Positions 6,051 through 32,264 of a stretch of DNA of 64,000 nt are shown piece by piece. The notes beneath the pieces are model-generated. The model did not search any database. It saw only the letters and a program-made list of their open reading frames with translations, and had not been told where the DNA came from. Source of the stretch: Schmidtea polychroa (Eukaryota). Within the stretch, counting starts at the first letter, position 1. Each line of letters opens with the position of its first letter. The DNA lies in assembly GCA_044892525.1 (NCBI GenBank), contig CM097887.1, positions 107,362,397 through 107,426,396 on the forward strand. The letters run 5' to 3'. The position numbers and the translations under genes were made by a program.

Positions 6051-6584
6051 TGTTGGGGTTACACCTCGGCTGACTACTCTACTATGTTGACAGGTCTAAG
6101 GGTTGATTGTCCATCTCGAATAAAAGGTGCCACCGATTTGTCAACCTGGAGTGAAACCCCACATAACTTTCTTCCAACATAGTGCCCGTGAATCACTTCA
6201 CGTTGGTACTGCACTATGCAGGCGAGACGCCAGCAAGCAGGTGAGCTTCTGCCTTAAAACTACTCCTTGCTGAGGCCTCGACTTCCCATTCACGACTGCC
6301 GATAGAAGGGCTTACGTCCATTTCCTTACACAACCGCTTATCGGGATTCGCTGAATGCAAATTGGGAATTTCTCACTAGATCTTGCGGGTTCTCTACTCG
6401 ACCCACTTAATTAAAGTCTAATTATTCATGAACGAAGACGTGTAAGACAACAAGATTTATTAATTTCAAGGTTATGACACAAGGATTCAGCTGTACACTT
6501 TACTAACGTTTATCGAAAGAAGAGAAAACATCGTAATCAACATAGATCGGATCCTTGTTCCTCATCCTGACCGCCACTGGGGTT

Positions 6585-7337
6585 TTATTGTTTCTCCCAT
6601 TCAGCGTCGGCGAATAATTCGTCGAGGTTAAAAAACTCGGAAGCGTTCTCTTCCCACGTTACGCCAGCGGCTGATATGATTCGCGCTGAGGGTCCCGTTG
6701 TTAGGTCGATGGACACGTGAGAGTTGCCACCGTTGGTTGAGTCCTCTATTGATGGGATGTTTGGCTTGGTAGTGGCGCGTTCGCGCTGTCTCTTCTTGCG
6801 CTCCGCACGAGAGAGTTGTTTGCGCTTGGGTTTGCTTGAAGATGCCACTTGCAGAAGGGTGACTGAGACAGATGGACTAGCAGTGGGGGGCTTACTGGTA
6901 CCCGTGATGACAACATCTGGTCGCTTGGGGGACAATTCGTTTTCGACGCAGTCTCGGCACGGTCTCTTGAACGGTGGAGATGGATTCGAGGAAAGGTTGT
7001 GATGAGGCGGAAAGATGTCACCGGCCTCTCGGATGGGAATCTGCACTATTTTTCGGGTTGTGGCCGCCTGCACGTAAACCTTATGCAGTGCCTCGGATTG
7101 TTCTCTGATTAGACTTCTTTGGGCACGGCTCTCAGATATTAGCGCGTCCCGACAATGCTCGCTACGATCGAGCTTCTTTTGGATCTCCTTCATCCGAGCG
7201 GGACTAAACCATGTCCCTTCCAGCTCGTCGATTTTTCGTTTATATCGACCGATCTGGGCTTGAAGATCTTTAATCACTGCATTTTTATCTGAGCAGGAGA
7301 AGCAGGGACGTAGAGCTGATTTGTTGTTTGATAACAT
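6585..7337 (-). CDS. LTR-encoded 250-aa protein (two CxxC, coiled coil, basic NLS-like stretch, acidic/aromatic C-terminus); 3' LTR copy
   Basis: ATG-initiated ORF in element sense. Acceptor-like ttttcttctttAG lies 9 nt upstream of the ATG. AATAAA overlaps the stop (6584-6589) and a second occurs at 6456-6461. Confidence 0.7.
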   Translation of the reverse strand: MLSNNKSALRPCFSCSDKNAVIKDLQAQIGRYKRKIDELEGTWFSPARMKEIQKKLDRSEHCRDALISESRAQRSLIREQSEALHKVYVQAATTRKIVQIPIREAGDIFPPHHNLSSNPSPPFKRPCRDCVENELSPKRPDVVITGTSKPPTASPSVSVTLLQVASSSKPKRKQLSRAERKKRQRERATTKPNIPSIEDSTNGGNSHVSIDLTTGPSARIISAAGVTWEENASEFFNLDELFADAEWEKQ

Positions 7338-9742
7338 AATGGATGGCTAAAGAAGAAAACTATGGTGACTATATCTAAAAATTTCGGATCAGATATACGG
7401 TTTATTCGCTATTGGATACTTAGTGCTGGAAGAAAACAAGACGAGTCGATGAAACAGGATCCCTCCCTTCACCCTTGATTACTAATATTTTACGTATCCT
7501 TTACAAAAATTATTCCTCAACGCCCTGATTGCTTCCCTGACGAATGCAAATTATTTGTAAAAATTTTTATTTTCGTCTATCGCGTTCAAGTTGGATTTCT
7601 ATCTATCGCACATAAAGGCAATTTACGGATTTATTCCTGCCGGAGCGAATAACCCTATTTCATTACAAATACACTATACTACACTTCGTTTAAATTTCGC
7701 TGATTATTTGTTATTATTCTAATGCAAAATAAGGTTTTTGGACCAAATGCAACTAGTAAAAACTTGCACCCTGACCTCAAGTAGCGGAATAAGTAACAAC
7801 TCGTAATTTCGTATAAACTATACGTCACTATTTTATGATTACCCCTTATCCATACCATACGGTGATATCGTCGTAGAAATATAGCATCGTAAAAATATTG
7901 TAATTACATAATAATTTGTTAACGGATTTAGTTTTCTATTACAATACGTCATTTACAGGGAATATGAGAAATTTAACTACAATGTTACTAGCTATTTTAT
8001 AACCCAAAAATTCCTGTAGATACTTTAGTTAATTTAAATTTGGCTCGAAGGCTACTACTATTATTTGTAACATCTAATTAGAATTACGATAAACCTCTAC
8101 AACACTTAGGTAAAACTTCCTATGGTTTAGTTATAAAGTTTGGTTTGAATTTTCGATTATTAATTAAAATACCCTTTCAACAATTTCGATTTTTATTTAG
8201 CATATTTAATTTAAGCAAAATTATCTTTAATGAGTGCACTTTAGAGAGTCCCTTATCTTAGTAGTCGGTTACTGGTTATTTGGCTTATCTTTTTAGTGGT
8301 ACGAATGGCCTTTATCAGTAGTGAAATTTAAGAGTCAGTCATCTGGAAGTCACATCTCATGTCAGCATTATCTAATAGGACCACTGATTACTACTCACTC
8401 ACTAAGAATCCTAGAGAGGGTGACACATGGTGGCATTCCCTGCGGTGAGAGGCATTCGGAATGATTCTGCTGTTTCTCATGCATATTTCTGACCGGATGA
8501 CGCTACTCATAGTTATGTTAGCAGTATGTCTGTATGTATGGGTGCCTATTCGATGGAAATTTTATCTGTAACTATCAACCGTACTGAGCGAACTGCAAAT
8601 GTTACATCGCGTGTCGATTCCCATCTGAGCTTATGATGTTGGATTTATTTACTACGACTCGTAATTTCCTCAATATTGGATGCTTTTGAACGATGGAAGA
8701 TCTCTACGAACCAGCCAACTAGACTCTATGAAGCATATTTCAGTAGTGGATATTTCGACGCGACAGCATGAAAATTATTCAATGGGTATTACCAGATTTT
8801 GTTAATATATGTGATTGAATACAGTGTTATTGTGGTTTTATGTTTTACTTTTCCTTTATTGTAAATTCCTCATCATATGCTAAGATTTGGATGTCGCATC
8901 TGAAAGAGATGACCTAAATTAGATTTACTTTTTCAAAAATCTACCGAATGCAATTTCAACTTCTCGATATGTTAGAAAAACCAGCGATGGATGTTTAATG
9001 GTATTTTCCCCCACATGGTAAGTTCGGATTTATAGACAGAAGTGGCATGAATGTCTTATAAGACGACTCTGGACAATACAGAGTTAATAGGAGAACTCCC
9101 TCAGTCGCTGTGAAGCACATATCCTATTTTCGAAAATTTCATAAGGTTTCCTTTCGGTCTATATTTCGGTACTCTGACAGATTTTAAGTCCTTCAGCAAT
9201 TGGACCCGTGAAGAAGCCTTCACATTTCGGCCCAATCTAGCTGCGTGATTGAAATACTCCATGTCCACCGGCTGAGCTCCCGAAGGCACCTCGCACCATG
9301 ACATGGAGTATCTCAACGCCACGTTTCTCGTTAATATTAGAAATCATAAAACTATCACTTCAAAATAAATATCCATAAAAATTATGTAAGGGTTCACCTG
9401 TTACCAATAAATACTTTTAAACATTTAAATTATTTACTTTATCAAAATCGTTATTCAGGATCAAATGAAAAGAGAGTCCGGTTAAATTTAAAAGTTTAAT
9501 TGCTCATTAAATATACATATTTACTATTAACCTCGAAAAACAATATCATAAATAAAAATCCCTTACTATGGAATTAGGCTGAATCGGAAAATTAACGTTA
9601 GTCGTTCCAAATTAGTCTGATGATGGTTCGTCGAATGTCGATTGCTGTGACTGATTTCGAATTGCTGTGAAGTTTTTCGAATTAACTGTTGCTCTACTTG
9701 TATTGCTGATCCTGGAAATAAGTCTCCGTGAGTTGTAGATGT

Positions 9743-9819
9743 CTATGAAATGCTCGGGGTTAACAGTAAAAACAGTAAACATTTTTCTTACCTATGAAAT
9801 GCTCGGGGTTAACAGTAAA
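9743..9819. promoter_or_regulatory. 28-bp direct repeat in the U3-side of the LTR (9743-9770, 9792-9819; also 35957-35984, 36006-36033); candidate enhancer
   Basis: ctatgaaatgctcggggttaacagtaaa occurs twice, 49 bp apart. Function is inferred from position only. Confidence 0.45.
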
Positions 9820-10436
9820 TTTAATGTTTTTGGTAGTTGTATATATATCAAATTCTTATTTGTGCGGACCAATCAGAGTTGAGTACCGCTTATTTCTATT
9901 AATTTAATATAATTTTCTTGTTTTTAGGTTGTTTTTTCCTTATTTTCTTTATTTTTAATATGTTTTTCTATTTATTTCCTTAATTTCCTTATTATTTCTT
10001 GAATTCCTCTTTATTTATTTGTCAACTTGTTCTATTTTAATCTTTTCTTAATTTTATTTTTTGTTTTAATTCTTATGTCTTACTTATTATTTTCCTTATA
10101 TCTTATTCTATTTTATTTCTGATTTTATTTATTTTATTATTATTTTTCTTAATGTTCTACTTCCCTACTTTCCTATTTTTCAACGATTAAATTTTCGACT
10201 CAGCCCAACAAATCACTCGGGGACCCATCAAAATTGCGTCCCGCAATTGCATAATTAACTTAATTCATTCATTCAAAAAAAAAATATAACACGAACACGA
10301 AAATTATACAACAATGATAAAATTTTTATTGTAAGATCTAGGTCAAAGCAAGATCAAGCAAGTATCACTTAAGGTGATAGTTTGTACATACAATAAAAGT
10401 TTCCACATATAATAACACAAATGTTTGAGTTAGAGT

Positions 10437-11105
10437 TTATGAACTGTTAACCATTGATGCTTCTGCTGGCGGCTGTTGGTTGGTTTGGGTATTGATGTTG
10501 AGATAGGTCTGACTATTAGATTTCGGCTGGATTGGTTGATTACTCGGGGTTCGAGGTCGGAATGGGGTTGGGTTAAGATTTGTCAGGGGCACTTCTTGAG
10601 GATTTTGGTTCGAGGTTACTCTTATTGATGTCGAGATTCTACATCTATTTCGAACTTCGTAAATTTTCATGAATATTGGTAGACATAGGAGGAGGGTTTC
10701 TGCGATCACCACATATATGAGATAATGGGCGTTATTGATTTCGGGAGGTATTTTTGGCTTTTCTACCAGATTTCCAAAATTCTCTTGTTGCATTTGTTGT
10801 TCCAACTGGTCGAATTGTTGAATTTGTTCGAGGATTTGTTTGTTTATCATTTTACAAATGGGATTCTTTTTACACATTGTTTGGATGTTGTTGATGTGTG
10901 ATCGGGTTGATTGAATGGTTTGGATGATATGGGTTTTTACGGTCATCGGGTATGTGCATTGACTGGATTCTTGTTTAGGTTCTTGATTTTGATTTCGGTA
11001 ATCTCGTACGATTTTCGGTTGGGCGTCTATTTGTTTGCTCTCCTTCAGAATCATCAATACCATCATTGTTATCATCATCTCGCCTCGCATGATACTATTA
11101 TACAT
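10437..11105 (-). CDS. Accessory type I membrane protein (likely start Met6 at 11090)
   Basis: Met-rich signal-like N-terminus (MRGEMMITMMVLMILKESKQIDA-Q), Gln-rich helical ectodomain with two Cys, TM segment YLIYVVIAETLLLCLPIFM, Pro/Asn/Gln-rich tail. Confidence 0.75.
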   Translation of the reverse strand: MYNSIMRGEMMITMMVLMILKESKQIDAQPKIVRDYRNQNQEPKQESSQCTYPMTVKTHIIQTIQSTRSHINNIQTMCKKNPICKMINKQILEQIQQFDQLEQQMQQENFGNLVEKPKIPPEINNAHYLIYVVIAETLLLCLPIFMKIYEVRNRCRISTSIRVTSNQNPQEVPLTNLNPTPFRPRTPSNQPIQPKSNSQTYLNINTQTNQQPPAEASMVNSS

Positions 11106-11145
11106 TCATTATGTTTATTTACAATTGGTTTTAATGACCCTTAAT

Positions 11146-11898
11146 TTAATGGTTCTGATTTGGATTATTTTCGCCGATTCTCATCAAGGTGGACTCTGCT
11201 TTAATTACCCTGTGTCTTAACTCGGGCAGCATTTCCAATTGTCGGTCTTTTTCACGGGCTTCTCTCTTTAGATGTCTAATTTCTTTTTCCAAGCGTCTAA
11301 TTTCTTCCCTTTTCTTTTCAAGGTTTCTTTTTAGCTCGATTTGTAGGAGATCTTGTTCGTTTTCTTGCAGATAATTTTGTTGTTGATGTTTTCTTTCTAT
11401 TTCTCTATATTTGCGGACCCACTTCCTCATTTCTTTACTTTCCCGTTGGTTTTCTTCTAGTTGTCGTTTTAATTTATTTATAGCTGTTTGGCGCTCCTTC
11501 GCCTCAGTTTTCCAGTAGTCTTGGATTACCTCCTTTGCTTTGAAGCTTGCCCTCTCTTTCCATAGTTCTTCCGCTATCTTTTCCCAGTTTTTCCCTCGCT
11601 TCCTTTGTTCGTGTAGCCATTCATTTTCCTCTTCCGTTTCTCTTTTTATTTCCCCCAACGCTTCGCACTCTTTCTTTAACACCTTTATCATTTTCCGGTC
11701 CTCTAGGTATTTGTTTATTAATCTCCCGTTTTCGTATTTCTCTTCCCGTAACTCGGCCTTTAGCGTTTGTGTTTCTGTTGTTTCTGCCTCAATCTCTCCC
11801 TCTTCTACGTCGCTCATAATTTCTATCATTTCCTCGATTTTCATATCTATAATATGTACAGTTAATGGTGCGCTATAGTGCGACTTATACGTATACAT
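11146..11898 (-). CDS. Accessory coiled-coil protein (250 aa; likely start Met19 at 11844)
   Basis: Intact ORF, E/K/R-rich heptad-like composition, same orientation as the element. Confidence 0.75.
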   Translation of the reverse strand: MYTYKSHYSAPLTVHIIDMKIEEMIEIMSDVEEGEIEAETTETQTLKAELREEKYENGRLINKYLEDRKMIKVLKKECEALGEIKRETEEENEWLHEQRKRGKNWEKIAEELWKERASFKAKEVIQDYWKTEAKERQTAINKLKRQLEENQRESKEMRKWVRKYREIERKHQQQNYLQENEQDLLQIELKRNLEKKREEIRRLEKEIRHLKREAREKDRQLEMLPELRHRVIKAESTLMRIGENNPNQNH

Positions 11899-12015
11899 TG
11901 ATATAAAATTTAATAGTTTGGGTTACAGTCCCTTGAATACTTTTACAATACTTTAATTTTTTTTTTGTTTGGGATATACGTCCCGGTTTTTAGTTTTTCA
12001 TCTTTTCATCCACCC

Positions 12016-13125
12016 TTATACGAAGGTTTCCTCCTGGCCTACATAACCTTCATCACTATCGACCGCGGAATGTAACTGTATCGCAATAGGGTCGTATGGT
12101 AGGTAATATTGGGGAATTTGAGCTCTCAATTCATTAATTTCGTCTCTTAGAGCTCGAGTGATGTTCAATTCCTCGTCGAGCAGATAGGTGAGATACCTTG
12201 TCTCTTCGTCTTTCGCCTCTATCTGTTTGTCTAGGGCCTTGATTTTCTCGTCGCCCTTCCATTTTTCAATTTCTATTTCTAAGTTTTTAATATTTTCGGT
12301 GTACATTTTCCTTTCGTTTTCTAATTTTCTGTTTTTTCCCGCTAGGACCATGTTTCTTTGTTCCAGCGATCCTTGTAATCCATTAAGGTCTCTTTTCATC
12401 TCTTCTACCTGATTTACTAATTCCACAACCCGTCCCGCTTGTTGGGTTATCATCTCTTCCATTGCGGCATTCTCGTGCTCTCTTATGTCGCACTTCATTG
12501 CCAAATGTCGCTCAAACTCCATAGCCTTTGTTTGCCAGGTTTGGCTTCGGGCGGCGACCTTTCTCAACCTTTTCAATTCTTCCTTTATTATTAAATTCTC
12601 CTCCCATTTACCTTGTTCGCTTTCATATCCGAGTCTCATGGGCAATTCTTTCATCTCTTTTTTCATTTCTCTGTTTTGTCTTTTCCATTTTCTCGCTTCT
12701 GCCACTAAGTGCATCATTTTCCTGTCTTCTATTTGTTTTTCCGCTTCGCGCTTGGTGTTCTCATCGGTAAGTCTTTTTCTCGCTTCCTGCACTAGCTGCT
12801 TTAAGTAGTGGCTGTGTGCTTCTTGGCGGGTATTTTCTAGTGACGCCCATTTTGATGCTCTTTTGCATGCTTCTGCTTCCGCTCTTAAGTTGTGTATTAA
12901 CCATTGGTATTGACTATTCTCATCTTCTCTAGTTTCTTCGATGTGATTTCGGGTGAGATTAGTTAGTTGGAACATTACTTTGTTCCATTTTTTATTATGT
13001 TCTCGGGGAATTTGTGTCTTGTTGACATTGGTTGGGGCTATCGCAGTTTCGGTTATTTTCTCTTGTGTCATCTCTAAATCATAGACATCGATTAATCTTT
13101 TTATTATGAAAAGGAATTTATTCAT
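12016..13125 (-). CDS. Accessory coiled-coil protein (369 aa; likely start Met19 at 13071)
   Basis: Intact ORF with long E/K/R/Q-rich helical stretches. Confidence 0.78.
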   Translation of the reverse strand: MNKFLFIIKRLIDVYDLEMTQEKITETAIAPTNVNKTQIPREHNKKWNKVMFQLTNLTRNHIEETREDENSQYQWLIHNLRAEAEACKRASKWASLENTRQEAHSHYLKQLVQEARKRLTDENTKREAEKQIEDRKMMHLVAEARKWKRQNREMKKEMKELPMRLGYESEQGKWEENLIIKEELKRLRKVAARSQTWQTKAMEFERHLAMKCDIREHENAAMEEMITQQAGRVVELVNQVEEMKRDLNGLQGSLEQRNMVLAGKNRKLENERKMYTENIKNLEIEIEKWKGDEKIKALDKQIEAKDEETRYLTYLLDEELNITRALRDEINELRAQIPQYYLPYDPIAIQLHSAVDSDEGYVGQEETFV

Positions 13126-13263
13126 TATTTACTGTTTCTTGGGAAATTTTCGCATCATTTTTGGGTTTTCGTATTTAGGGTTTTCATACTATTATTATAT
13201 AATATTTTATTGGTTATATACACCGATATATACAGATTATTATATACAACATTATTCGATTGG

Positions 13264-14652
13264 TTATTCCGTTCTACCCTTCTCCTCTTTCCTCACGGTC
13301 ATCTTGATATATATGGTATCATTTCTCGCCATATCTTCTACTCTTTGTTGTGAGATGAACGTAGGTGCTCCTGTTGCTGATCCTTCTTCGTTGAGGGGCC
13401 TCTGGTAAGCTATTTGATTCCCCGTTGTTTTGAAGCTTTGCTCATGTATACTTTGGTTGTTCATCAGAGTAATATCGATTTTTGCCTGGAACGGCCATTC
13501 TAATATTTCGTCGTATTCTCCTTTACATAACAGAAAGAAAATCGAAAAGTGCGTGTTTAATCCGGTTCCGTCCCCGTTGGGATATATCTTCATTTTCATT
13601 TTGTACCCATTTTTCCAAGAGTGGAATGTAGGACTTGTTATTCTTGTCTCTTCTCCGGTTTTTGCTTTTCGTATTCTTTCTTTTACTCCCGTTATTTTCC
13701 ATATGTAGGGTGCTGTTGGGGTTATCTCATTTAGATTTATTTCCCGTATTTTCTGATGTAGCTCCTTGGCCTGATTATTACTGATTTCTGTTCGGTTTAT
13801 TTGCATCTTTATGTTTGCTCGGGCTTCTTCGAACGCTTTCCTTTCTTCTAGTAGTTCTTTGACTAACACTTTCAACGATGTTATCTCTATCTCCATTTGT
13901 TTTACTTTCTCTTCGCTTTCTTGTAACGCAGTCGACCACATTTCTGCGTGAGTTGAAGCATTTTCTACTAAATGATGTGGTAACTCACCTCGGTGTAGTA
14001 ATTTCTGACAACCCCATCTACCTAGTACACATGTCATTCTTTTCTTTTCGCATTCCCTTAGATGCTGTGCCACCTTCATTATTTCCCCTTGGTTACATCC
14101 GTTTGGGCATTCCCCACTGAACTCCGCACATACTCTCTCCTCTTGGACATTGTGATGTTTGAGGGTGAGATTTATCCACGTATCTATTTCTCCACAGTGT
14201 TCACATCTTTCTAATCTCTCTTCACACTGCTTTTGATGTTCTTTTTCTTCGCTTGCTCGAATGGTTTTATGGCACCTTTCACACTGGCCAATTCTGTACA
14301 TACATTCTCCCATATGTTGTACTACCTTCCATATTACTCCTTTCCATTCGCATGGGGCATTTTTGCATCCCAGGTTGGTGTTTAACATGTCTTTCACTGC
14401 GGCTTTATCCTCGTTAGTGTCTTCTAAACTCGATATTAGTGTCTCTTTACACACCGGGCACCTCTGTGGTCTATTTTTTATTGCTTCACTGATACATTCT
14501 TTACATACTCTGCATCCACATTGCGTTTGGTGAGGTTCCTTTAACAACCCTTCACATATTCCGCACATAACATGTTTGTGTATTCTGATCGTTGTAGATT
14601 TTCGGACTTGCTCGACAATCTCCCTGAACTCTTCTCTTTGTCGTTTATCCAT
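13264..14652 (-). CDS. Full-length intronless TRAF (RING, TRAF zinc fingers, coiled coil, MATH/TRAF-C)
   Basis: RING CGICEGLLKEPHQTQCGCRVCKEC...CPVC; repeated CxxGC/HxxxC fingers; MATH core GYKMKMKIYPNGDGTGLNTHFSIFFLLCKGEYDEILEWPF resembling TRAF2/3/5. Confidence 0.95.
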   Translation of the reverse strand: MDKRQREEFREIVEQVRKSTTIRIHKHVMCGICEGLLKEPHQTQCGCRVCKECISEAIKNRPQRCPVCKETLISSLEDTNEDKAAVKDMLNTNLGCKNAPCEWKGVIWKVVQHMGECMYRIGQCERCHKTIRASEEKEHQKQCEERLERCEHCGEIDTWINLTLKHHNVQEERVCAEFSGECPNGCNQGEIMKVAQHLRECEKKRMTCVLGRWGCQKLLHRGELPHHLVENASTHAEMWSTALQESEEKVKQMEIEITSLKVLVKELLEERKAFEEARANIKMQINRTEISNNQAKELHQKIREINLNEITPTAPYIWKITGVKERIRKAKTGEETRITSPTFHSWKNGYKMKMKIYPNGDGTGLNTHFSIFFLLCKGEYDEILEWPFQAKIDITLMNNQSIHEQSFKTTGNQIAYQRPLNEEGSATGAPTFISQQRVEDMARNDTIYIKMTVRKEEKGRTE

Positions 14653-14737
14653 TCTATAATTATATGTACAAATAGTTCTTATCGATACAGGTTCGATATT
14701 TTATTTACAATTATTTACATTTTAAGCTAGGTTTGGT

Positions 14738-15097
14738 TTAGGGTTCGGAAGAGTCGGCTTCGTGTCCGCTCTCCTCTCTATTCATTAGCCATTCCGACCA
14801 GTCTTCTATTTCTGTCTGTTCTGCTTCCTCCCTCATTCGGTCTATTTCAATTTCCTGTCGACGGCTATATTGGGTTATCCTCTCTATCTCTCTTTGCATT
14901 TGTTCGATTTTTAACCTCTGGTCTTCAATTATCTTCAAATAACTAAATCCTCTGTTCATACTCTCGATCAGGTTTCTGTGCATCGTCAGTCCTTGTTCTT
15001 GCAAATTGGACACTAATTGTGCTAATACGGCACATTGTTGCTTCCATAATTCTTCAGTTACTGTATTGTGGTTCATTTCGTTATTTCCTTGATCCAT
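14738..15097 (-). CDS. Accessory short coiled-coil protein (119 aa from ATG at 15097)
   Basis: The ORF track starts at a TTG (15121); the first ATG is MDQGNNEM. Q/E/R-rich helical sequence with acidic C-terminus. Confidence 0.7.
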   Translation of the reverse strand: MDQGNNEMNHNTVTEELWKQQCAVLAQLVSNLQEQGLTMHRNLIESMNRGFSYLKIIEDQRLKIEQMQREIERITQYSRRQEIEIDRMREEAEQTEIEDWSEWLMNREESGHEADSSEP

Positions 15098-15257
15098 TCC
15101 TAATTTATATACACTTTTCAACTCTTATGTAAATTTAATTTTATTTTATGATTCCCGTTATTGTATAATATTGATACCGCGCTTATATAAAGATATAGTA
15201 CTGTTATATACATAAGATATACTTACTTTTTACAATTATATACAGTCATATTCCTTT

Positions 15258-16260
15258 CTATATACGTGAGTTTGGAGGGCGCTGAGCGTTCCAGGCCTCC
15301 ACCCACTGTTCTTGTTTGATATCACTTGGTCGTTTCACTCGATGTTGGAAATTTCTGATTCGAGTCATCTCTAGTTCTCCGCGATGTCGTTTATCCTTAA
15401 TTATTTTTATTGTTCCCCCCGTTATGATTAGGAATGCCCCTGTTATTATTATCCCACTGATCCACATCATCTGCTTCACGCTTATACTCTCTGGTTTTTC
15501 CTTGTTGGTTAATGTTGATATCGCTTCTGTACTTCTCTCGTTTCCTCTTTTGCCATTTCCTTTCATCATTTCCCGTATTCTTGCTATTTCCTCGTTCATA
15601 CCCTCCTTTGCCATCTTTTGTATTTTTTCCATCTCTTCCTCCGAAACATAGTTGTCCTGAGCTTCCTCACCAGTTTTCTTGTGCTTTCCTCCTTCGTTCT
15701 TTTCGTCGTGGTTTTTTCTTTTCCTTCCTCTTTTCCCCGGGTATCGTCGGCATTCTCTTTTTGATTCATTCCTCCAGATACAAACCGTGTATTCTTTCGG
15801 CGGCTGCTGCTGCGTCACATATTGATGGCATCTCTCACCTGGTCCTAATCTTGAAATACAGACTTTGTGCTCTTTTCTAGGTTGGATCTGCGTTATTACT
15901 ACTTCACCACCTTTTCCTAGGTGTACCTCTTTTCCTTTGACGTTCGTTATTCTCTTCCCGTCTCGATTTCGGTATGCTTCTTGTATTCTTACTTCTGTTA
16001 TTGGTTCTGTGTCCTCATTTATCAGTACTAATTTCTGATACGCTCTAGACATGCATCTTCCTAGTATGCACTTTTCCTTTAAGTCCCATTCTTCCTTTAA
16101 ATCCCACTGCTGCTCTTGTGCTTGCTTTCTCTTTTCTTGTTTTAGTTCGTCCTCTTTGCTATCTTGATTCTCCGCTTCTTTGGTTTCTTTTATCGTTCTC
16201 GTCCCTCCCTGAGCTGTTACTAACTCTATCATGGTAAGCATAATTATCATTAATATCATA
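15258..16260 (-). other. Polyprotein C-terminal type I membrane protein module
   Basis: Signal-like MILMIIMLTMIELVTA-Q (about 16205-16260), Cys-containing beta-rich ectodomain, TM MMWISGIIITGAFLIITGGTIKII (about 15403-15475), basic tail. Confidence 0.65.
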
Positions 16261-19200
16261 TTTGTCTCTATTTCTTTGTTAGTGAAAGGTAGGCATACCC
16301 TCTGTTTTCCGTTATTCGATTTTTCCTCCTCTTTGGTCTTGGTTCTCGGGCTGTTTCCCTCTCTTTTCGTATCCGAATCCTTGTTTTCTGGTTTACCCTC
16401 CTCCGGTTCTCTTTTCTCTTTATCCTCCTTTCGGCCTTTTCCGTTATTGTCATCGTGTTTATCTCCCTCGCTGTCATTTAAAATGTCGTCCTCGACATTT
16501 ATATCGTTCAATAATCTGCGATATGCTGTTAGCACTCTGTTTCTTGCTAATTTTGCTTCGAATTCAAACTCTTTTCTACCCGTTGCAGCATGTCTCTTTC
16601 TATTCCATTCTTTAACTAACTCTCTCAATTGCATACGACGATGTTTCCCAATTCGTTGTTGTTCGTTCTGATTTTGCGTGAATTTTAGGTCTTCTCTATT
16701 TAATACTACTAAAATAATTTTCGGCGTCCCCCCCTTAGTTAGGGTATTCTTTACCATCGCATTTTCTCCGTTTTCGTAGAATTCGTTTACATTTATCGCA
16801 TATTTATTATTTGGTGGTACTCTCCAGGTTAATAATAATTTCATTGCTTCTAGATTTTTCCGTACCGCATTCCATTGAAACTGAGATGTGTTTTTGCACA
16901 TATTTTCGACTTCTTCTTTTGTCGCATTTTTGCAAATAAATCTGATCATTTCTAAGTTTGGCTGTATGGTTGCCCAGTCCAAGGTGGAATTTCCTTCATT
17001 GGACTTTTCGTCTAGTTTCGATCCTGATTGATGTAGGATGTGGAGTGTTTTTGGGTGTATTTTCGTTATAGCTGCATACATCATGGCGGTTTCACCTTGT
17101 TCATTTTTCGTGTTGGTTTCCTCGCCCATCTCTCCAAGGATTCTCACGATCGTTATTGCTCTATTTTCTTTCGCTGCTAGTATTGCTTGTTGTAGGGGTG
17201 TTCTGGAATCCTTCGTTACCATCGTAAATGCTCGAGGCAAGAAGGTTTTGATTTTCCCGATATCTAAACCCGTGGTTTGATCTCTTGCGTATGTGTGTAC
17301 GGCCTTTATTATTTTTGACAATATTATTTCGTCTGGCAGCTCTAGCATTTCCTCAAAGAACACTTCTTTTGCCTTGCGTATTATTGCCTCTTGATCTATA
17401 CTCATTGATTTGGTTTCGATGACGTTGTTTGTGACCGTTTGGTTCGTTGTTGACTTTGATTCCCTGGATTTCTCATACCTTATTTTCGTTTTCTTTCCGT
17501 TTGGATTATTGATTCGTTCCTCTGCTGTAAGTATTTGGATAATATCCAGGTAATTCTCGCGGATGTTATTCATTGTGTCCATCATATATAACACACTTAC
17601 CGTTTCCCAATATTTATTCCGTACTTGGTTAGTAAATTGGAATAGGGATTTTTCGAATGTGTCGATTCGCTTTTTTGCTAACTGTTCGTCTTTATGATTT
17701 GTGAATTTTATCCCTCGTTCTAGTAATTGATTCGGGATTTCGAATAACTGATGTCCTTTCATAGCTTCTCTCATCAGCGTGTTCTCTCCTCTCGTGAACG
17801 CTTCGTTTACGTTGATCATATAATCGTTTCGAATTGGATCTCTCCATGTGATTAATATTCCGGTAATTGTCGTCAGTTTTTCTTTGATCGCCGTTAACAA
17901 TCCATCATACATGTTTCCGACTTCCCGATTGTCCTCATATGATAGTAGTTCCATCAATGACGTGAACGCCTCGGTACTTCTCCCTTCGATAGCATGATGT
18001 AGAGCGTTTTTCCGCTCGTGGTCTTGTGTAGTTATTTTCGATCCGGTATCGAGTAATGCGGTTATAATGTCTTTGGTTTTGCCTCTGTTTGCGGCTATCA
18101 TTAATGGTGTGTAACCTTGGTTGTTTGTTTGTTCTGTTGATCGCTTGCAGTCGTGAAATGCTTCTATTGTTTCTAGTATTTGCTCGTTGTTACCTACTTT
18201 CATGAGTTTGTGTAATGGTGTGTCTCCGTAATGATCTGTTATTGTAAATAATATTGGCCATTGGCTTTTGACTACTCGCAATAATGGGTGTGTCCTTTCT
18301 CTATTTGCATAGTTCTCGATCATCGTCAATAATCCTCCTAATATTTCGAAATCTAATCGATCTTTTGCCCATCCAGGTATTCTAATTTTTACCTCTTTTA
18401 CAATCTTTTCCGCTTCTGATGGTTGGATACCTAATCGTCCAGTGATCGGTTCCGCGAGTTGTTGCATCATGTTCATTCGGTAGGTTTGCGAACGTGTGGT
18501 TAATGTACGGCCTTCTGGTTGACTAGTAGCTGTTTTTGGAATTGATTTGCATCGTGCCACGTTTACGTATATTGGTCTGGTAAAGGGGTTATTTACCAAT
18601 TTCACTCTTACATTAGTTTCGCCTACGAATAAGATCTCATATGGTCCTTTTCCGTTGCGTTGTAACTTTTTTGTGGTTCCTGGAATTAATTCCGGGGTTT
18701 CTATCATTACCCAATCACCTGTTTGGAACGTATGTTGCTTCACGTTTTTCTTTCGATCGTGTAAATCTTTATAACTTTCCTGGTAGAACTTGATATTTAA
18801 TCCCGCAGTTTCCCAAATTTCTTGCATTCTTTCCTTGAATTTCGTAACATAATCATCGATCTCCATATACTGCGATATCGGTGGTTGGTATTCCAGGTCC
18901 ATTGGCATGTTACATTCTCTTCCGTACATTAATTTGAATGGGCTCATTTTCGTTGATGCGTGAATCGACATTCTGTACGCCATAAGACATAGGTTTATAT
19001 ATTCGTCCCAATCTCGTTGGTGACGGTCAACGTAGTTTGATAACATTTGTATAAGTGTTCCATTAAATCTTTCCGTCATCCCATTGGTTTGAGGGTGGTA
19101 TGGAGATGTTCTTAGTTTTGCTATTTTGAAGTAATTTGTTACTTCGCTCATTATCTCACTCATAAAATTAGTTCCCTGATCGGTTAAGATTTGTTTTGGT

Positions 19201-22200
19201 GTTCCATATCGGCAACATATCTCTTCTACCAAAATTTTTGCGATTGTTTTAGCTTTTTGGTCTGGCATCGCGAATGCTTCTGGAAATTTCGTAAGAAAGT
19301 CTGTGATCACCAGAATGTAAACGTTTCCTTTATCTGACTCTGGTAGTGGACCAACTACGTCCATGGATATCATTGTCATTGGTTCTATTGGTACTGGCAT
19401 TGGCGTTAAAGGTGCTTTCCATTTCGATCCAGTATTCTTCCTGGTTGCACAAGTTAGACAATTTTTTACCCATTCGGTTACATCTTCAGTTAACGTAGGC
19501 CAAAAATATTTCTGTTTCATTCTTGCTAACGTCTTTTTCGATGACATATGTCCTCCCAATCTCCCATCGTGATATTGCGTTAGTAACTCTTTTCGTCGGT
19601 TTTCCGGTATACACATTAATCGTTTTTCCCCATCCATTATCAGCAACCAATCTTTCTCTATAATATATCGGTGTCGGTGTTTATCCATATGTTCTTTTAA
19701 TTTTTGGTCTTTCGCATATACCTCTGTCTTTCCGGTTTTTACATAATCGATAATTTGTTTTAATTCCGCGTCCTCTTGTTGGTCCTTTCGTAATTGACAG
19801 AAATCCAAATCTTCCGCTACTATTAAGCATATGCGTTGCATTTCGGAATCCACCAAATCTGGGAAAATAAATCTTGACATACAATCGGCGTTGGCATTTG
19901 CTCTTCCCGCTTTGAATTTTATAAATGGGGAGTATTCTTGCAATTGCATGGCCCATCGCATCAGTCTACTGGACGCTTCTTTATGTTGCCCTAACCACAC
20001 TAATGGTTGATGATCCGTGGTTATGCATATCTCATGTCCCCATAGTAAATATCGGAAGTGTTTGATAGCTTGTATTATAGCCAATGCTTCTCGTTCTGTT
20101 ACCGAATAGTTCTTTTCGTGCTTTTTGAATGTTCGACTGTAATACCCGATTACTCTCTCTTTTCCCTCATCGTCTAATTGTCCCAGAATCGCGCCTGCCG
20201 CGTACCCGCTTGCATCCGTTGCCAATAGAAATGGCTTCTTAAAATCTGGGTGTACGAGGATAGGTGCTTCGATTAGTTTATCTCTCAGCGTTTCGAACGC
20301 CTGTTGTTGTTCTTTTTCCCAAATGAACGAAATATCCTTCTTTACTAATTCCTGGATTGGTTTTGCAATTCCTGCATAATTTTTGATAAATTTGCGATAG
20401 TATCCGCATAATCCTAGAAATTCCTGCACTTGGGTGACCGTTTTCGGTGCGGGACATGTTTTTATTTTCTCAATGTTTCTTGGATCTGGCTCCTTTCCTT
20501 TAGCTGACACTATGTGTCCTAAAAACGTGACTTTTTCCTTTGCCCAATCGCATTTTGATGGTTTGAGTTTGAGTTTCCACTGTCTTAATCTAATAAATAC
20601 GTTTCGGATATCTTCCAGATGTTGTTCAAATGTCGCTGAATAGATTAGTAAATCATCAATATATACCATACATTGTTTGATTCCATGGGTGACAAAGTTC
20701 ATACACCGTTGAAATGATGCTGGTGCGTTGGTCAGTCCAAATGGCATTTTTCTGAATTGATATAGATCTCGTCCCAACGTGAAAGCTGTTTTCTCTTTGT
20801 CCTCATCTTTGACTTTAATCTGCCAGTATCCACTTTTTAGATCTAGAGAAGTAAAATATGCTGCCCCTTGCAACATCAATAACATCTCATTGATGTCCGG
20901 CAATGGATAGGTATCTCTCTTGGTCACTGCGTTTAACTTCCGATAATCGATACAGAATCGTTGGGTGCCATCTTTCTTTTTTACCATGACCACTGGGAAT
21001 TGCCAGGGTGAGCAACTTGGTTCGATTACTTTTGCGTCTAGCATCTTTTGTACTTCTGCTTCGGCTATTTCTTTTTGCATTTCTGCTAGCTTGTATGGTC
21101 TTAATGCAATTGGAGTTTCATCTATGAGGGGTATTGCATGTAGGGTAACATCGCATGTACCCAAGTCTAAGTCTGAGATGGCGAATATATCTTTATATTC
21201 TACCAACAATCGGTGTAATTTTTTCTTTTCATCATTCGTCAACAACATACTATCTATTGTCCATAATTCATCATCTTTGATCATCTCGTTGGTCACTTTC
21301 GGTAATTCTATGTCCATCATTGGGGTCAATCTTCCCAATTTTTCGTTCTCATAAATGATTTTGTCTTCCTCTTCGAAATTCGTGATGTTGAGCGGTATCA
21401 CTCCTTCTTGGTTTATTGTGATTATTTCTCTTGCGAGTGGTAATTCTCGTCGCTTTTCGAATGACTTGCTTGGTTCAAAGATAACTTCTCCTTCCATACC
21501 CGTATCCACTTTTATCTGACAAATCATCTGTGATTTTGCTGGTACTATTATTTTTTCTGGACATCTGATGACTGCATTCATTTTGCATATTCTACCGGTT
21601 TTGTCTTTTAAACACATAGTTGTTAAGTCTATTACGACTTCTTTTAATAATTCTGGCATCAGGTCCGTTCCGATTATGCATGGTACGCTAAGTTTTGGTA
21701 TTACTGCCAAATACGTTTCAATTTCGTTGTCCTGGTATCTCAATGTAGTCCACCATCTTCCGACCACGTCCACTGTTTCTTTACTACATGCTATGATGTG
21801 AATTGTTGTTGATTCGATATCCTTCCAGTGTTTACTGGGGATTTGATTAATCGCTATCGCTGATACATTAGCTCCGGTGTCTATCATAGCATTGGTTTCT
21901 TTACCATTGATTTGAATCATAACTGTTACTGCTGGACCTCCAGGTAAACTCATCGCTGCTATTGTTCTTACGTCATCTGCTTGATCTACACTTTTGGTAC
22001 GTCGTGTTGGCATATAATGCATACCGGGTTGACTCGGTAATTGCGGATACATATTTTGTGTCATGGTCAAAGCTGTTTGTGGTCCCACGATATCCGGTGG
22101 TATATAGCTTCCATTGGCGATCCAGGTGTTTGTCTTTTCCTTTTCCCAATATGGTGCCGTTTCCATTGGTTTTTCGTTTGGGTTTCTGTTTGGATAAAGA

Positions 22201-25200
22201 CATTTATCGTTCCCGTTATCATCGTCGTCACTATCGCTGTTAGATGATTGGCTTCTAAATCGGTCCAAGAATTTTGGCTTATTCTTTTTCAATTGTCGTC
22301 TTGTTGCTTCATCGTACATTACTTTCCGGAATCGTCTGCCTACTTCCTCGTCGGTTCCTTTAATCTTTGTTAATATTTTAATCAATCGCTTTATCCGATG
22401 AATGTCTTTTGAGTGACCATGTAATACCATGGTTTTAGCTAAAAATGGTAAGAAGCCTACTATCATTTTCCAGTTAACTTTCTTTTCCCGCTTGTATATA
22501 TCGAAACAAGCTAACATTTGTGTTAGTATTACTCTGACTATCTGAATTATGAGTATGATCCCTAATATCCCGGCCATCATTTGTCCAAAAACTAAGAATC
22601 TTCCCCACATTGCTTTCATCATGTTTGACGTAGCTTGTTGAAAATGGTCTGGCGATAATAGCAGCTCGTAATTCGGGCCTGATTGATAATTTGTGCCCCC
22701 AGTTATTGTAACCATATTAGACAAAATGGATTCTCGTCTGGCTGGAAAGAGTACGTTAAGTCGTGCTGTTTCTAGATCTTCCGGGGAATACATACCACCG
22801 TTTGACACGTCTATAGGTTTGAAATCCAGCTCTGTGGCGAGTTCTATTAATCCAAATTTCTTGGGCTCCTCGGATATGGTTTTTCCCGGTAACATCATCC
22901 ATTTCCCATCGGGCCTTTCATATAAAGGTCCGTATGCATTAGAACAGTTAAAGAGATTTGGGTAGAAACCCACTGGATTCATAATTCTAGTGACTGGTTG
23001 GACGAATCGATTTTGTCCTTTATAACGGATTTCTAATTCATTTGCACATCTCTTTTCGGGTAGTATGGATTTTTCTGGCATTCGTGCATACGTCTTGGTA
23101 CACTGGTATGTGTACATCACTTCTCCTACCATTCTACCAAAGTGTCCATCTGGTAATGGGAGTGATGGCATCGTGTTATCTGGGTGCGTTATCGCAATAG
23201 CTAGCTTTGTTTTCAATATTTCTTTATTTAATGAACAATCGTTTTGTATTAGATCGTAATATACTTTTTGCAAGGTCGTTTGTCCGCGATGAAATAGAAA
23301 ATCCATTTTATTATTTGCATATAAGTATAGTTTTACGTCCTCCGTTGCTATCTTTCCCACTGCTCTATCGATTATTTGTCTCGACATATAGATACCTGCG
23401 TAATTGGTTTTATATACTATACTGTCACATTTGGTGGTTTCTTTCTCTTTGATAAATCTCATACCTAGATCTGGATCGTCTGTGATTAATGCTGTTGGTG
23501 TCTTCTGCGTTGAAAGTCTCTTTTCTCTGGGAGATGGTGGCATTGGTTTTCCATTTCGCATTCTCACTCTGTCGTTTCCATCCTCGTCGTTCTCGTTCTC
23601 ATATATTTCTCCTTTTACTTCATTGAACAAAGCACTTTTTAACAGTTGGAGTCGGCATTTTTGGGTATTAGCTTCATAGATTATAGTTGATACTCCTGTC
23701 CTGCATACGTTTTCTGTAGCTTTACACGCTGGGTTGGTCTTCATTTGGTAATTATTTGCGTCAAATTGCGCTTCGTATTCTTTTAATTCGACCGTGTAAG
23801 ACTCGATCACTACAACTCCCGATATTACCTCGCCTCGGATCGTATACGTACCTCCGTTACATGACCCATCTGATGATTTTACTTTTCCGGATACGTAAAC
23901 ACTTTCGGTTTTAATCATTCCAGTTTGTCCGTGAATTGTCACTCCGTTATGCATTTTTAGCGCTCCGGTTCTAAATAGCTCTTTACAATCCTCTCGTTGT
24001 ATTGATACGATTTCCTTATCCAGACCGGGTAGTATAAGAGTCGAATACGAATATTGTCCACAGTAATATGCGAGTACCTTTTTTGATACTACGCATTCCC
24101 TTGCTTGCGTTCTGATGAAATCTGATTCTTGATATACATGGTAAGTAACTTTTGTTCTCACGATGTCCAATTTGTTGGGTGAGGCTTGTCTGCATTCTTC
24201 TATGTCTCTCAATGAGTATTTATCTCTCATTATCATATTATCACAATCGTAGATGGTGAAGCCTGTTGCTCCACTTGTGCACAACATCCATATCATCATA
24301 GTCATCATTAACGAATTTATTGATGCTTTTCTGCTTGCGGGATCTTTCATCGGTAGTTCCCATTCTAGTTCATTTAACAGTTTTTTCAATCTAACTTGCA
24401 TCGACCTTTCTTGCTCATTTTTCCGTGGCGCTTGTATTAGTCTTTTCCATCCTCCTGCACGAATAATATGTGGTTCAATAGTATTCTCTATGATTGAAAC
24501 GGTCATTTCCACAGGATTTGCAAACTGTTTATTTGGTATTTTCCTCGCAGCTAGTCCCATCAAATTATACATCAAATACGTGATTACCACTAGGTGATGT
24601 TCGTCATCATTTGCATTTGTCGTGAGCTGCTCAATCACTCTCTTTGTTTCGTCCCAATCCGTTTTGGTGGTTTTCGTTTTCTCTTTGATTAACTTTGGGA
24701 TTATCCCCGAAATGGTGTGCCATAATTGTCTAGCTTCCGTACTGGCTACTTTCCGTTGCCACAAACGTCTAAGTTGTGGGTTTGTTATTATTAACATATC
24801 TTTTAACAATTCTCGTATCCATTTTTCTCCTCTTTCGATCGTTGGTTGGGCTTCCTTTAGATCCCATACTATCTTATCCAATTTTTCTAATCGAACTTGC
24901 CCTTGTTCTTGCTTTAATTGTTCTTTGGTTTTGAACTCAGATTTTTCTCCTTGTTTCTTAGGTCTTCCTTTTGCCCGTTTTTCCATCATCGTTCCGGCTT
25001 CTCTGGTATTTTCGTAATTCGGATTTCTTTCGTTATCCGTTCTGGGTAATGAGCTATCGTTATTTCTTAGCCACTCATTCCATTCGTCTATTATTTTGTC
25101 GGTTTGACTTTCTGGTGTTACTTTCGTTGGTTCTCTTTGCTTCTGGAATTGTTCATCCGTTTCGGTTTCCGTAGTATTGTCGATGATTTCTTTGATGTTC

Positions 25201-28200
25201 AGTTTCGTTGGTTGTTGATAACTCGTTGATGGCTGGTTATTAGTCCACATTTCGGCTCCTGTCGGCCATTTCACTAATAGCGGTGATCTTTCTCCTGGTT
25301 CATCGTCACTATCTTCCAGGATTATCTCTTCAACTTCTTCAGTTTCATTAGATTTACTTGGTGCTTTGTTCGGACTTGGAGTACTCAAACTGCCTTTTGT
25401 TGGTTTAATAATTTTACTTTTCCTTTTTAACGGTTTCCCCAACGTTTCTGCCATCGTTAATACATTTGTCTCTTCCAATCTCATGGGTGTTATCCCGACG
25501 TCTGCATTATCGTCTAGTGATTTTCCGAACAGTTGCAGATGGAATGGAGTTTCATATGCTAATTTCTTTTTTAATTCTCTAATTTTTGTTGTTGGATGCA
25601 CCTCTAGTTCCTCGATGCTCTTGTCCGGATACTTGATTCGGATGTGATACCTCTCCTGGGTGTCTTGTGCCCATTCCTGATTTCTCCATTTTCGAATAAT
25701 TTGTTCTAGCTGTTCTGGATACCATTCATTATATTGCCGGTATTCCTCTATTGCCTTTGCCATTCCTCTCAGATTGTGGATATTCTCTGATGTTTTTAAG
25801 ATGATATTAGCCAACGCTACTACCTGGCGTTTTTGATTTTTCGCTCCCATTGCTAAAATATCGCCTAATTGTTTATATCTTTCTTTCTCTTCTCGTTCTC
25901 TTGCTTCCGCCGCTTCCTCGCCGTCCATATCAGCATATTCCCGTTCCTTTTTCCTCATTGCATGAATATGTCTCGCTTCATTTTCGCTTTCTGATGTGAC
26001 ATCCGTCTCGCTTTCGTCATCTGATGTCTGTCCCCTTGCTTCCTCTTCATATTCTGGGGGTTCCTCTTCTTCTTCCTCCGATTCACTTTCTGTCTCACCG
26101 ATGTCTGTTTCCACGAAGGTTCCTTTCCGGATTTCCCATTCCTTACTTTCTGCATTCCACACTCTTTCCCATGGGGTTCGTCTGCAGGATCTGGTGCTTA
26201 ATTTCGTGATTTTTCCTTGTAGTTCTTTTTCTTTTAACCATTGTTGGTGGATTTCAATTAGTTCTATAGATTTTCGATATAACGTTTTCATCCGGTCTCG
26301 TATTTCTTTTTGATAGGTTACATCTCTTGTTCGAAATTCATCCATTGGTACTATCCTGATTATCTGGTGATTGTCCCACATACCCATTTCGCTTAACGAG
26401 GTGTCGTCCTCCGCTCGTAATATTATCTTATCGTACATCATGACTACATCATCCACCATACCATCACTACTTTCGCTACGTACCTTTTCCGTTATCTCTT
26501 GGTTTATTTTTGATACCAAGTCATCTACTGTACTCTGATTGCTCATTTTTATTCGTCGTTTTTCTTCGTTCGGTAACCATATGGTTATTTCCAACCTCTG
26601 TGGCTGGGTTTCTTTTAACCTTCCATATTTGTGGATCAAATTTATGGTTCTCCAATCACTCATTCGGAGCATTTCTGTATCTCGCAACCGGCTCATTAGT
26701 TCGTACATGGCTGGGGCTCGTCTGGTGATGAGTAAATCCCAGTTGTCTTCTACTTGTTCTTGAATTTGTTTGATCAGCTTATCCAGGTTTCGTCTCAGAG
26801 TACATTGTTTTATTTGTTCTAATTTCAATTTGATATTAAAATCATATTCTGCCTTGGCATCTTTAGCCCAATCGTAAAAATTGGCTGGTTGTTTTTCTTT
26901 ATGCAACTTCAGTATTTGCGTTTCTCCTGGCCATATTAGTGCATCTACTAAGTGCATATCTGGTTTGATCTGTTCTCCTTGGTATTGATACAGATATTCT
27001 TTCTTTCTCGAACTTCCCAAATGTTCTCGTATCCAATCGAAAAGTTCGTCGGTGACTGTATTTTTTATCCACATTCTTTCAAGTCCTCTACTCGTTCCAA
27101 TTTTTATTACATACCGCGTGGTATCGGCCTGCTTCATTTTTTCCATATAATTTTTTATAATTGATTTTTCCTCGTTTGGTATTAGATCTTTCTCGTTTCT
27201 TTCCAATTTCATCACTTTTTGCACGAATCGCCTGAATGGTATTACGTCAATGAACTCTTGGTTCCTCACTACTACTGGGAGTATTTCCGCTACTTGTTTT
27301 ATCGCTTCCTCCTTCCCTTTTCTCAACTTCATTTCGATATCCTCGTCTTCACTTTCGCTGGTTATCTCGCTTTCGCCTTCTTCCTCTTTGATTTCCCCTT
27401 TTGGAGGTTCGCTTATTTCATTCAGCTGTAGTATTTCTCCACCCAAACTACTTACATAGTCTTCTTCCTCGTCTGATGATGCTACATCTTTTGTCCTTTT
27501 CATCATATTGATTTGCAAGTTTCTCATCCTTGGTACTCTCTTTAGTTTCTTTCTTTCGAATCTCGTTGTTTCTTCTGATTCTAATTCCTGTAGCATTTGG
27601 TGGTTTAGTTGACTGGTTTGTTCCTTGCTCTTGTTATTTTCATCTTCTGTCTCGGCTTTCGCTTTATTATGTTCTTTTTCGATTTTATCTTTTATCTTTT
27701 TCCAGAATATTTTCTGAATTCTCTGGTTTCCTTTTAAAATCGTGGTTGAATTCTCTGTTTTCATTTCCGTTGTTATTTCTTTTACCTTTTCTGGTTCAGT
27801 CATGGGTACTACCCTTGGGCTTTTCCCGTAATTGTAGCAATACTGGCTCTTCATGTCTTTTACTAACTTCATCATATTTATTCGCAATGGTTGTTCTTGT
27901 CGTTGTTGGTTGCGTTCTTGTTTTATCCTCTCTTCCTCGGCCTGTAGCCTTTGCCATTCTTGTACATGTTGATGCACTTCATAATTGTTGAGATTTTCGG
28001 TACTCCTCATCATACGTATATTCTGGGTTTGTTGTGGTGCTGATTCTTGTCTTGGTCTCATCATTTGTTGCATCATCTGTTTCATCTGCGAAATTTCCTG
28101 CATAACGTTCATTTGTTTTCCTTCGTTAGGGTTACTTTGTCGTTGCGGATTCGCTATATAATTATTGTTTCGCTGTGGTGGTCGTTGTTGTTGGCCCCTT

Positions 28201-32239: not shown

Positions 32240-32257
32240 ATCCCGGCTGAGCCCCCA
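32240..32257 (-). other. Primer-binding site, tRNA-Pro-like
   Basis: Minus strand TGGGGGCTCAGCCGGGAT, 7 nt inside the 5' LTR end; 16/18 identical to the MLV tRNA-Pro PBS TGGGGGCTCGTCCGGGAT. Confidence 0.85.
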
Positions 32258-32264
32258 AAAATCA

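Follow-up and report, generated by a model that had tools for sequence, protein, structure and literature searches.

A giant Gypsy element and its accessory cassette

The window analysed here, a stretch of 64,000 nucleotides (nt) from the planarian Schmidtea polychroa (assembly GCA_044892525.1, contig CM097887.1, positions 107,362,397 to 107,426,396; all coordinates below are those of the window), contains a giant Gypsy-type retroelement whose 3' part carries a cassette of five accessory genes, and the expression of these genes is the subject of this study. The element occupies 30,374 nt of the minus strand (6051-36424) and is bounded by a 5' long terminal repeat (LTR) of 4160 nt (32265..36424) and a 3' LTR (6051..10210), which are 99.98% identical and are flanked by CTAT/CTAT, a 4-bp target duplication. 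As the two LTRs differ at only one base, the element is clearly young. Its polyprotein of 4617 amino acids (15258..29111, minus strand) has Pfam matches to gag (residues 52-145), an env-like fusion protein (Monjiviricetes_fusion, 1868-2207), protease, reverse transcriptase (2710-2868), RNase H, integrase (3243-3340) and ankyrins, and env thus lies in frame between gag and pol inside a single polyprotein. Upstream of it lies a RING open reading frame (ORF) of 161 amino acids (31437..31926, minus strand; zf-C3HC4_3 by Pfam), and the LTR itself contains an ORF of 250 amino acids (32799..33551, minus strand, with its copy at 6585-7337) for which a Pfam search gave no match. With its size of more than 30 kb including LTRs and its ankyrin, MATH/TRAF and RING cargo domains (Pfam), the element matches the Burro-like giant Gypsy type and is regarded as kin of Burro/GYPSM1, an assignment made by architecture from published descriptions. 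The planarian Burro/GYPSM1 elements are described in PMC6431247 as exceeding 30 kb with LTRs, with a huge polyprotein in which env separates gag from pol, with ankyrin and MATH/TRAF cargo and with accessory ORFs; the difference, as far as that account goes, is that TRAF is here a separate downstream ORF within a five-gene cassette.

Behind the polyprotein, five ORFs follow head to tail on the minus strand, as the preliminary description of this DNA had stated, with spacers of 160, 85, 192, 171 and 55 nt (spacers 1 to 5: 15098..15257, 14653..14737, 13072..13263, 11845..12015 and 11091..11145). The ORFs are A1 (14738..15097; 119 amino acids, function unassigned), a TRAF-like ORF (13264..14652; 462 amino acids, RING and MATH by Pfam), A3 (12016..13071; 351 amino acids), A4 (11146..11844; 232 amino acids) and the fast-evolving A5 (10437..11090; 217 amino acids). 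Wherever synonymous divergence (dS) can be estimated, all five are under purifying selection: the ratio of nonsynonymous to synonymous divergence (dN/dS) is 0.06-0.17 for A1 to A4 (A1 0.07-0.11; TRAF 0.07-0.17; A3 0.06 against copy L046, with dS saturated against far sisters; A4 0.09 against L046) and 0.27-0.48 for A5. The five genes therefore need a route of expression.

The whole cassette is matched at 94-100% at no fewer than 29 places, the window included, and at least 92 TRAF copies exist in the genome, 91 of them free of stops. For comparison, the window, 6 near copies and 12 far-sister copies were used, which gave 95 possible spacers, 88 delimited and 76 distinct; L067 had no match in the comparison and was left out. 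In the far sisters, A1, TRAF and A3 are 63-72% identical to the window and A5 about 25-39% over the aligned parts, with dS values of 1.2-3 or saturated. A homolog search returned mostly unrelated Gypsy proteins and about a dozen env-bearing giants, one of which led to L077/L078. Family B, characterised by an ORF of 3334 amino acids, has no five-gene cassette. Identity to the window is mosaic along the cassette in L044-L049 (L045: A3 98%, A5 39%; L046: TRAF 94%, A4 78%, A5 47%), which suggests modular recombination between subfamilies. In L058 the TRAF ORF is almost entirely deleted, in frame, with both flanking spacers retained; this deletion was considered as a trace of splicing and rejected, as its borders are not splice-type.

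Acceptor-type AGs in front of the accessory start codons

The preliminary description had noticed an AT-rich, acceptor-like AG shortly before each accessory ATG, and had warned that three of these ATGs were internal Met codons chosen with the motif in view. The AGs are present (G at 15100, 14654, 13074 and also 13072, 11847 and 11095; gap 0-4 nt), and the Met choices are backed by sister subfamilies, where the first ATG in frame falls on the homologous codon, in most far-sister copies for A3 and in several for A4 and A5. The RING and LTR ORFs show the similar AGs ascribed to them: a YAG ends at 31925, 2 nt before the RING ATG, in the form YAG-NN-ATG in 9/9 copies, and an acceptor-like tttAG (7347) lies 9 nt upstream of the LTR ORF. 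The further warning that AT-rich DNA yields such motifs by chance does not hold for the AGs, and holds for the polyadenylation (polyA) hexamers treated below. In 5000 dinucleotide shuffles, it never happened that all five spacers had an AG 4 nt or less before the ATG, and at the rate at which ATGs on the element strand have a YAG 0-4 nt upstream (101/657), the chance of the pattern is about 5e-4, allowing two ATG choices in three ORFs.

Conservation across copies agrees with the proposal. In 76/76 distinct spacers, no more than 8 nt separate an AG from the ATG, although synonymous sites are saturated or nearly so between the groups compared; the next AG upstream is 11-49 nt off, and the base before the AG is T or C in 60/60 cases for TRAF, A3, A4 and A5, toggling between the two. 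In two distant metagenome elements, the first ATGs of 5/5 accessory ORFs have an AG 0-3 nt upstream (ttttAG, tttAG, aatAG, tacAG). Judged from these features, the five accessory AGs behave like splice acceptors. The polyprotein has a candidate acceptor as well (G 29715), followed by a 603-nt AUG-free leader (29112..29716, minus strand; 9/9 copies): behind this acceptor, no ATG precedes that of Gag, 504-659 nt on in 9/9 copies, and an equal length upstream contains 10-16 ATGs.

Could the AGs simply be start-codon context in a single unspliced polycistronic RNA that is read by reinitiation or internal entry? A purine at position -3 of the accessory starts would be in line with this, as would the contigs considered below, which cross spacer 5 and the A4 acceptor only in unspliced form. 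The toggling between T and C before the AG and the AG-free stretch upstream are splice features, however, and the ttttAG and tacAG forms of the distant elements are canonical ones, while the distance from AG to ATG varies from 0 to 6 nt. Such a mechanism is thus very improbable.

Polyadenylation signals and the operon model

According to the preliminary description, AATAAA/ATTAAA hexamers in the spacers, twice as ttgtaAATAAA, could mark cleavage sites in an operon. The two ttgtaAATAAA strings are indeed there, but as a signal the hexamers do not stand out: 10 are observed versus 7.5 +/- 2.4 in shuffles, 1041 of 5000 shuffles reach 10, and 24% have a hexamer in all five spacers. Planarian cleavage sites have U-rich flanks according to PMC5068929. 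Over the 50 nt that follow the best A[AT]TAAA, the median T fraction is 0.26-0.36 in the five spacers, where in short spacers these 50 nt enter the A-rich next ORF, which lowers the T fraction yet also leaves no room for a downstream element. Behind the hexamer that follows A5, the median is 0.56 (range 0.50-0.66; 16/16 distinct copies); it is 0.52 after RING, where a hexamer (AATAAA 31294 in the window, with a U-rich tract) occurs in 7/9 copies, and 0.48 after the LTR ORF (3/8 copies). Because the spacer hexamers lack a U-rich tract and the post-A5 hexamer has one, we infer that one polyA site after A5, predicted at 10270..10330 on the minus strand (AATAAA at 10330 and a U/GU-rich tract), is shared by the cassette mRNAs. 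Of the two alternatives offered in the preliminary description, cis-splicing from one donor fits best, in view of the conserved promoter, AUG-free leader and donor of the LTR described below, and cleavage in each spacer is not supported by the sequence.

This bears directly on the possibility that a host spliced leader (SL) is added in trans at the AGs, with or without cleavage in the spacers, or that cis- and trans-splicing are mixed at the same AGs. Operons resolved in this way in flatworms and nematodes consist of co-oriented genes less than 300 nt apart with an acceptor before each start (PMC12582326, PMC8629364), and the cassette resembles them, with co-oriented genes 55-192 nt apart and, at the sequence level, an acceptor before each downstream gene; the spacers fit the values given for flatworm operons (at most 300 bp, PMC12582326; peak near 100 bp, PMC8629364). 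In parasitic flatworms, acceptors are reported to be widely shared between cis- and trans-splicing (66% on average, PMC12582326), the Gypsy element Cer1 of C. elegans yields spliced mRNA with and without SL1 (PMC3315495), and no 25-kb introns would be needed. The difference from such operons is that no polyA site between cistrons is supported by the sequence of spacers 1 to 5, whose hexamers are at chance and without U-rich tract, and that the acceptors do not lack an upstream cis donor, as conserved LTR donors are present and the element retains its own AUG-free leader. Moreover, flatworm SLs are reported to end in AUG (PMC12582326), which would here be mostly out of frame because the gap between AG and ATG is mostly 1, 2, 4 or 5 nt, and at the polyprotein acceptor the SL AUG would open an upstream ORF of 26-106 codons in 9/9 copies. 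With efficient cleavage at five sites, full-length RNA would also become scarce, although the element is clearly young. On balance, SL addition is unlikely.

A predicted LTR promoter and a duplicated leader

If the accessory AGs are acceptors, the donor is to be sought in the LTR. A predicted promoter (36054..36087, minus strand) consists of ATTGG, i.e. a CCAAT box (36087), and a TATA motif (36061), a pair found in 19/19 LTR starts. Sequence motifs then predict a first exon with a 28-nt AUG-free leader (36006..36033) that ends in the donor AG/GTAAGA (G 36005), a 49-nt mini-intron (35957..36005), the last 28 nt of which repeat the leader exactly, and a second, AUG-free leader exon (35781..35956; ATG counts) with the donor candidate GTAAGG (35780). 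The arrangement of ATTGG, TATA and an AG/GTAA 54-57 nt after TATA occurs in 17/19 LTR starts, L053 being interrupted and L058 having no donor; the first-leader stretch of the LTRs has no ATG, and GTAAGT and GTAAAA are among the host donors. Between the predicted start and the second donor candidate, 15/18 LTRs are free of ATG and the remaining 3 have a single one, which lies in the mini-intron, compared with 2.4-4.2 in shuffles.

The leader recurs 44-54 nt downstream in 16/17 LTRs, with an exact match of 12-33 nt within an element, while between elements the leaders agree at a median of only 46%. The match begins at a median of 30 nt after TATA, about the distance expected of a start site, and ends precisely at the donor AG. 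As the leader is thus duplicated from the predicted start to the donor and homogenised within each element, the donor is presumably used in vivo, and the duplication is likely a record of cis-splicing at the LTR donor. If the mini-intron were lost from the 5' end of the genomic RNA, strong-stop DNA would end in the leader and would be placed on the second leader copy within the 3' repeat, by which the copies would become homogenised. Forms of the LTR without the intron occur in L044, L058 and L107. A different donor candidate, the GTAAG in U5 (32529, 9/9 copies), is dispreferred as main donor, as an ATG usually precedes it by 5-16 nt and no frame stays open from it into Gag. The stretch behind it, about 140 nt behind the LTR AATAAA, is conserved in 9/9 copies whose LTRs otherwise barely align; a U1 site or the start of a structured U5 RNA is possible at this place.

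A Pumilio-type octamer anchored to internal stops

The tgta-type strings noted earlier in the spacers belong to one octamer, TGTA[ACT]ATA, of which the sense strand of the element has 11, every one within the 663 nt of spacers (shuffles 0.56, at most 4 in 5000). In the window, octamers lie at 15244, 15212 and 15113 in spacer 1, at 14719, 14709 and 14670 in spacer 2, at 13248, 13234 and 13222 in spacer 3, at 11860 in spacer 4, where it is the sole one besides an A-tract, and at 11123 in spacer 5. The first octamer lies at +14 behind the polyprotein stop (18/18), at +18-21 behind A1 (17/17), at +16 behind TRAF (18/18) and at +16-23 behind A4 (17/18). Near the A3 stop there is none in 18 copies, and an A-run of 6-33 is found instead; after A5 the octamer is variable (7/16 copies), after RING it is absent from 9 copies, and after the LTR ORF none lies within 60 nt in 8 copies, with one far off at +199 (1/8). 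Among 101 stops of long frames in the window, only those of the polyprotein, A1, TRAF and A4 have an octamer at +10 to +23, and in the distant elements it stands at +17 to +19 behind 3/5 internal stops.

Over 139 cases across copies, the fifth base is T in 78, A in 50, C in 10 and G in 1, i.e. T, A or C in 138/139. This toggling and the invariant first T disfavour readings as Forkhead site or splice donor, whose consensus sequences differ in these respects. The host Pumilio has eight repeats with SRxxQ, NYxxQ, CRxxQ, NHxxQ, CRxxQ, NYxxQ, SNxxE and NYxxQ, which is the canonical recognition code. On the sense strand of the predicted 3' untranslated regions (UTRs), the octamer matches the Pumilio response element, UGUA(A/C/U)AUA (PMC8595405), and may thus be bound by this protein. 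A CFIm/UGUA site is disfavoured, since planarian polyA sites show no UGUA enrichment in the account of PMC5068929. Two extra copies of one Pumilio exon lie apart from the main gene (G000:C4, 88.41 and 88.55 Mb).

As the octamer includes TATA-like words and keeps to one strand, an internal promoter for each accessory gene or for the cassette has to be considered, in which TGTATATAA and TGTAAATAA would be TATA-like boxes and the AGs would serve short local introns or none. Foamy viruses and MMTV (mouse mammary tumour virus) use internal promoters (PMC9143442), ATTGG and words resembling TATA can be seen by eye in front of the exonuclease ORF of the compact env-bearing families, and the polyprotein stop is followed at about 32 nt by a GTAAGT (15226 in the window; 15/17 other copies, with GTAAAT in 2, and also in L078). 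The octamers are, however, anchored to the upstream stop (+14 to +23) and not to the next ATG, which is 33-177 nt away, and the ATG-proximal octamers lie as little as 14-18 nt from it; the T/A/C choice at position 5 fits Pumilio better than a TATA box, and no conserved CCAAT was seen by eye in the giant-family spacers. Internal promoters are therefore quite improbable for the cassette. A donor less than 50 nt from the polyprotein stop could shorten the 3' UTR without triggering junction-dependent decay, which spares donors within 50 nt of a stop.

The octamer is not general. It is lacking behind the stop in compact exonuclease-bearing families, where TGCATG, the Rbfox motif, stands at +17 (15/16) or +15 (1/16) behind the polyprotein stop, and at +10 in family B (3/3); 16 of 20 exonuclease loci were counted, L082, L087, L095 and L096 being left out as their polyprotein stop was not placed. 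In the compact families (L079-L098), a donor-like GT(A/G)AGA overlaps the polyprotein stop, and with its promoter-like words the spacer is possibly an internal promoter for the exonuclease ORF. The family B copies L030, L033 and L036 have two TGCATG behind the polyprotein stop, and the start of a small ORF reads tttcAG-aga-ATG.

Probable common-leader splicing of the accessory mRNAs

Taken together, cis-splicing of a common leader, with mRNAs that share one 3' end, is the best model and in our view probably the correct one. Transcription would start at the LTR promoter, and the AUG-free leader would be cis-spliced onto one chosen acceptor per accessory mRNA, so that the LTR donor would reach acceptors 21-25 kb away; the five accessory messages would share the polyA site after A5, and each upstream stop would face a long 3' UTR. 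The combination of strong donors and weak acceptors that PMC9143442 gives as a retroviral rule is taken as favouring this model. The octamer 14-23 nt behind the stop would be a site for a host protein that controls message stability or translation, and the octamers placed behind most internal stops possibly protect or regulate the messages. As Pumilio usually destabilises or represses its targets (PMC8595405), plain repression is as likely as protection.

Several observations weigh against common-leader splicing or reduce its support. The copies are related, and the counts stand for about two subfamily groups and two distant elements. The A1 acceptor is preceded by A in 15/16 cases and thus is mostly AAG, and the A1 and A5 acceptors are weak because the 20 nt before their AG are poor in T (0.35, compared with 0.48-0.52 for TRAF, A3 and A4 and 0.55-0.60 in three host acceptors). 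Contigs from four sets, of which X1, X6 and X7 are presumed RNA, were compared over 10400-15400; the LTR lies outside, and leader junctions could show there only as loose ends. The contigs of one probable RNA run cover 29/30 bins, mostly at 85-95% identity, and those that run through spacer 5 and the A4 acceptor show no splicing; this is equally expected of full-length RNA or of DNA and decides nothing. Among the 15 joints listed of 18, none had intron-type ends, and neither these nor the 20 loose ends listed of 247 gave a spliced junction or an SL. When fossils of leader-accessory junctions were sought in DNA, the 3 matches were all ordinary LTR variants. The intron-less LTRs can also be explained by deletion between direct repeats, and conservation of the donor does not prove its use at 21-25 kb because nearer partners exist (leader copy 2, LTR ORF, RING). 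Two contig ends were rejected as evidence: an X1 contig that starts 3 nt before the A3 ATG is explained equally well by a one-base length polymorphism among sisters, and a loose end of X6 with a T-run lies inside ORF A4, not in a spacer, and is taken as internal priming.

A more far-reaching version of the common-leader model is possible, albeit tentative. Here, the internal stops would be marked as genuine by the site of a host RNA-binding protein (UGUAHAUA, of Pumilio type, for the giant family and the two distant elements; UGCAUG, of Rbfox type, for the compact families), which would shield nested leader-spliced mRNAs from nonsense-mediated decay (NMD); two interchangeable proteins would play the role that PTBP1 has in Rous sarcoma virus (RSV), and the duplicated LTR leader would be a reverse-transcribed record of the splicing. 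The RSV stability element bound by PTBP1 (PMC4764554, PMC9143442) likewise places a host-protein motif just behind a stop that faces a long 3' UTR. Such a placement is found, by sequence, at four of the five internal stops, with A3 as exception. The motif differs, being UGUA(A/C/U)AUA, or UGCAUG in other families, and not CU-rich like PTBP1 sites; the spacers are A-rich with 22-30% GC.

Comparison with other retroelements

Complex retroviruses as described in PMC9143442 are similar in their cap-proximal donor, here predicted, in having a weak acceptor per accessory gene and in the long 3' UTRs behind internal stops. In the giant element, by contrast, a spliced leader appears to serve the polyprotein as well, this leader consists of several exons and is duplicated, and polyA-like sites after RING and A5 lie inside the element and predict 3'-coterminal groups. 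Such groups recall the major late unit of adenovirus. Cer1 is likewise a Gypsy element with host splice signals inside and a spliced mRNA for a product other than Gag/Pol; as far as the account in PMC3315495 goes, it differs in having one spliced mRNA, partly trans-spliced to SL1, and no multi-gene cassette.

Other features of the window

Between RING and the polyprotein leader, the window contains 74-nt tandem units (30409-30852), which sister copies have too. A primer-binding-site-like sequence, presumably of the tRNA-Pro type, lies 7 nt inside the LTR end (32240-32264) and is kept in sisters. A second, ordinary Gypsy-like element of 4.6 kb with 118-nt direct repeats occupies 54517-59083. 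Further ORFs lie at 36427-37866, 38826-39137 and 63105-63920; a transposase-like ORF pair, which we take to be Tigger-like, adjoins the giant element, and two of these ORFs look like exons of a host gene, presumably VPS51-like.

Implications

Planarian genomes are rich in Burro-type elements, which carry cargo related to ubiquitin and cell death and whose RNA increases when PIWI is knocked down (PMC8532177), and no description of the expression of their extra genes was found in the literature searched; at the level of title listings, with supplements outside the scope, there was no paper on Burro splicing and none on Pumilio sites behind retroelement stops. Common-leader splicing predicts exact junctions and 3' ends, which are testable with existing RNA data. 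The way in which retroelement mRNAs escape NMD despite their long 3' UTRs is described as an open question in PMC9143442, and a stop-anchored motif that is Pumilio-type or Rbfox-type depending on the lineage bears on this question. In its Pumilio-type form, the motif could tie the expression of the element to a stem-cell regulator.

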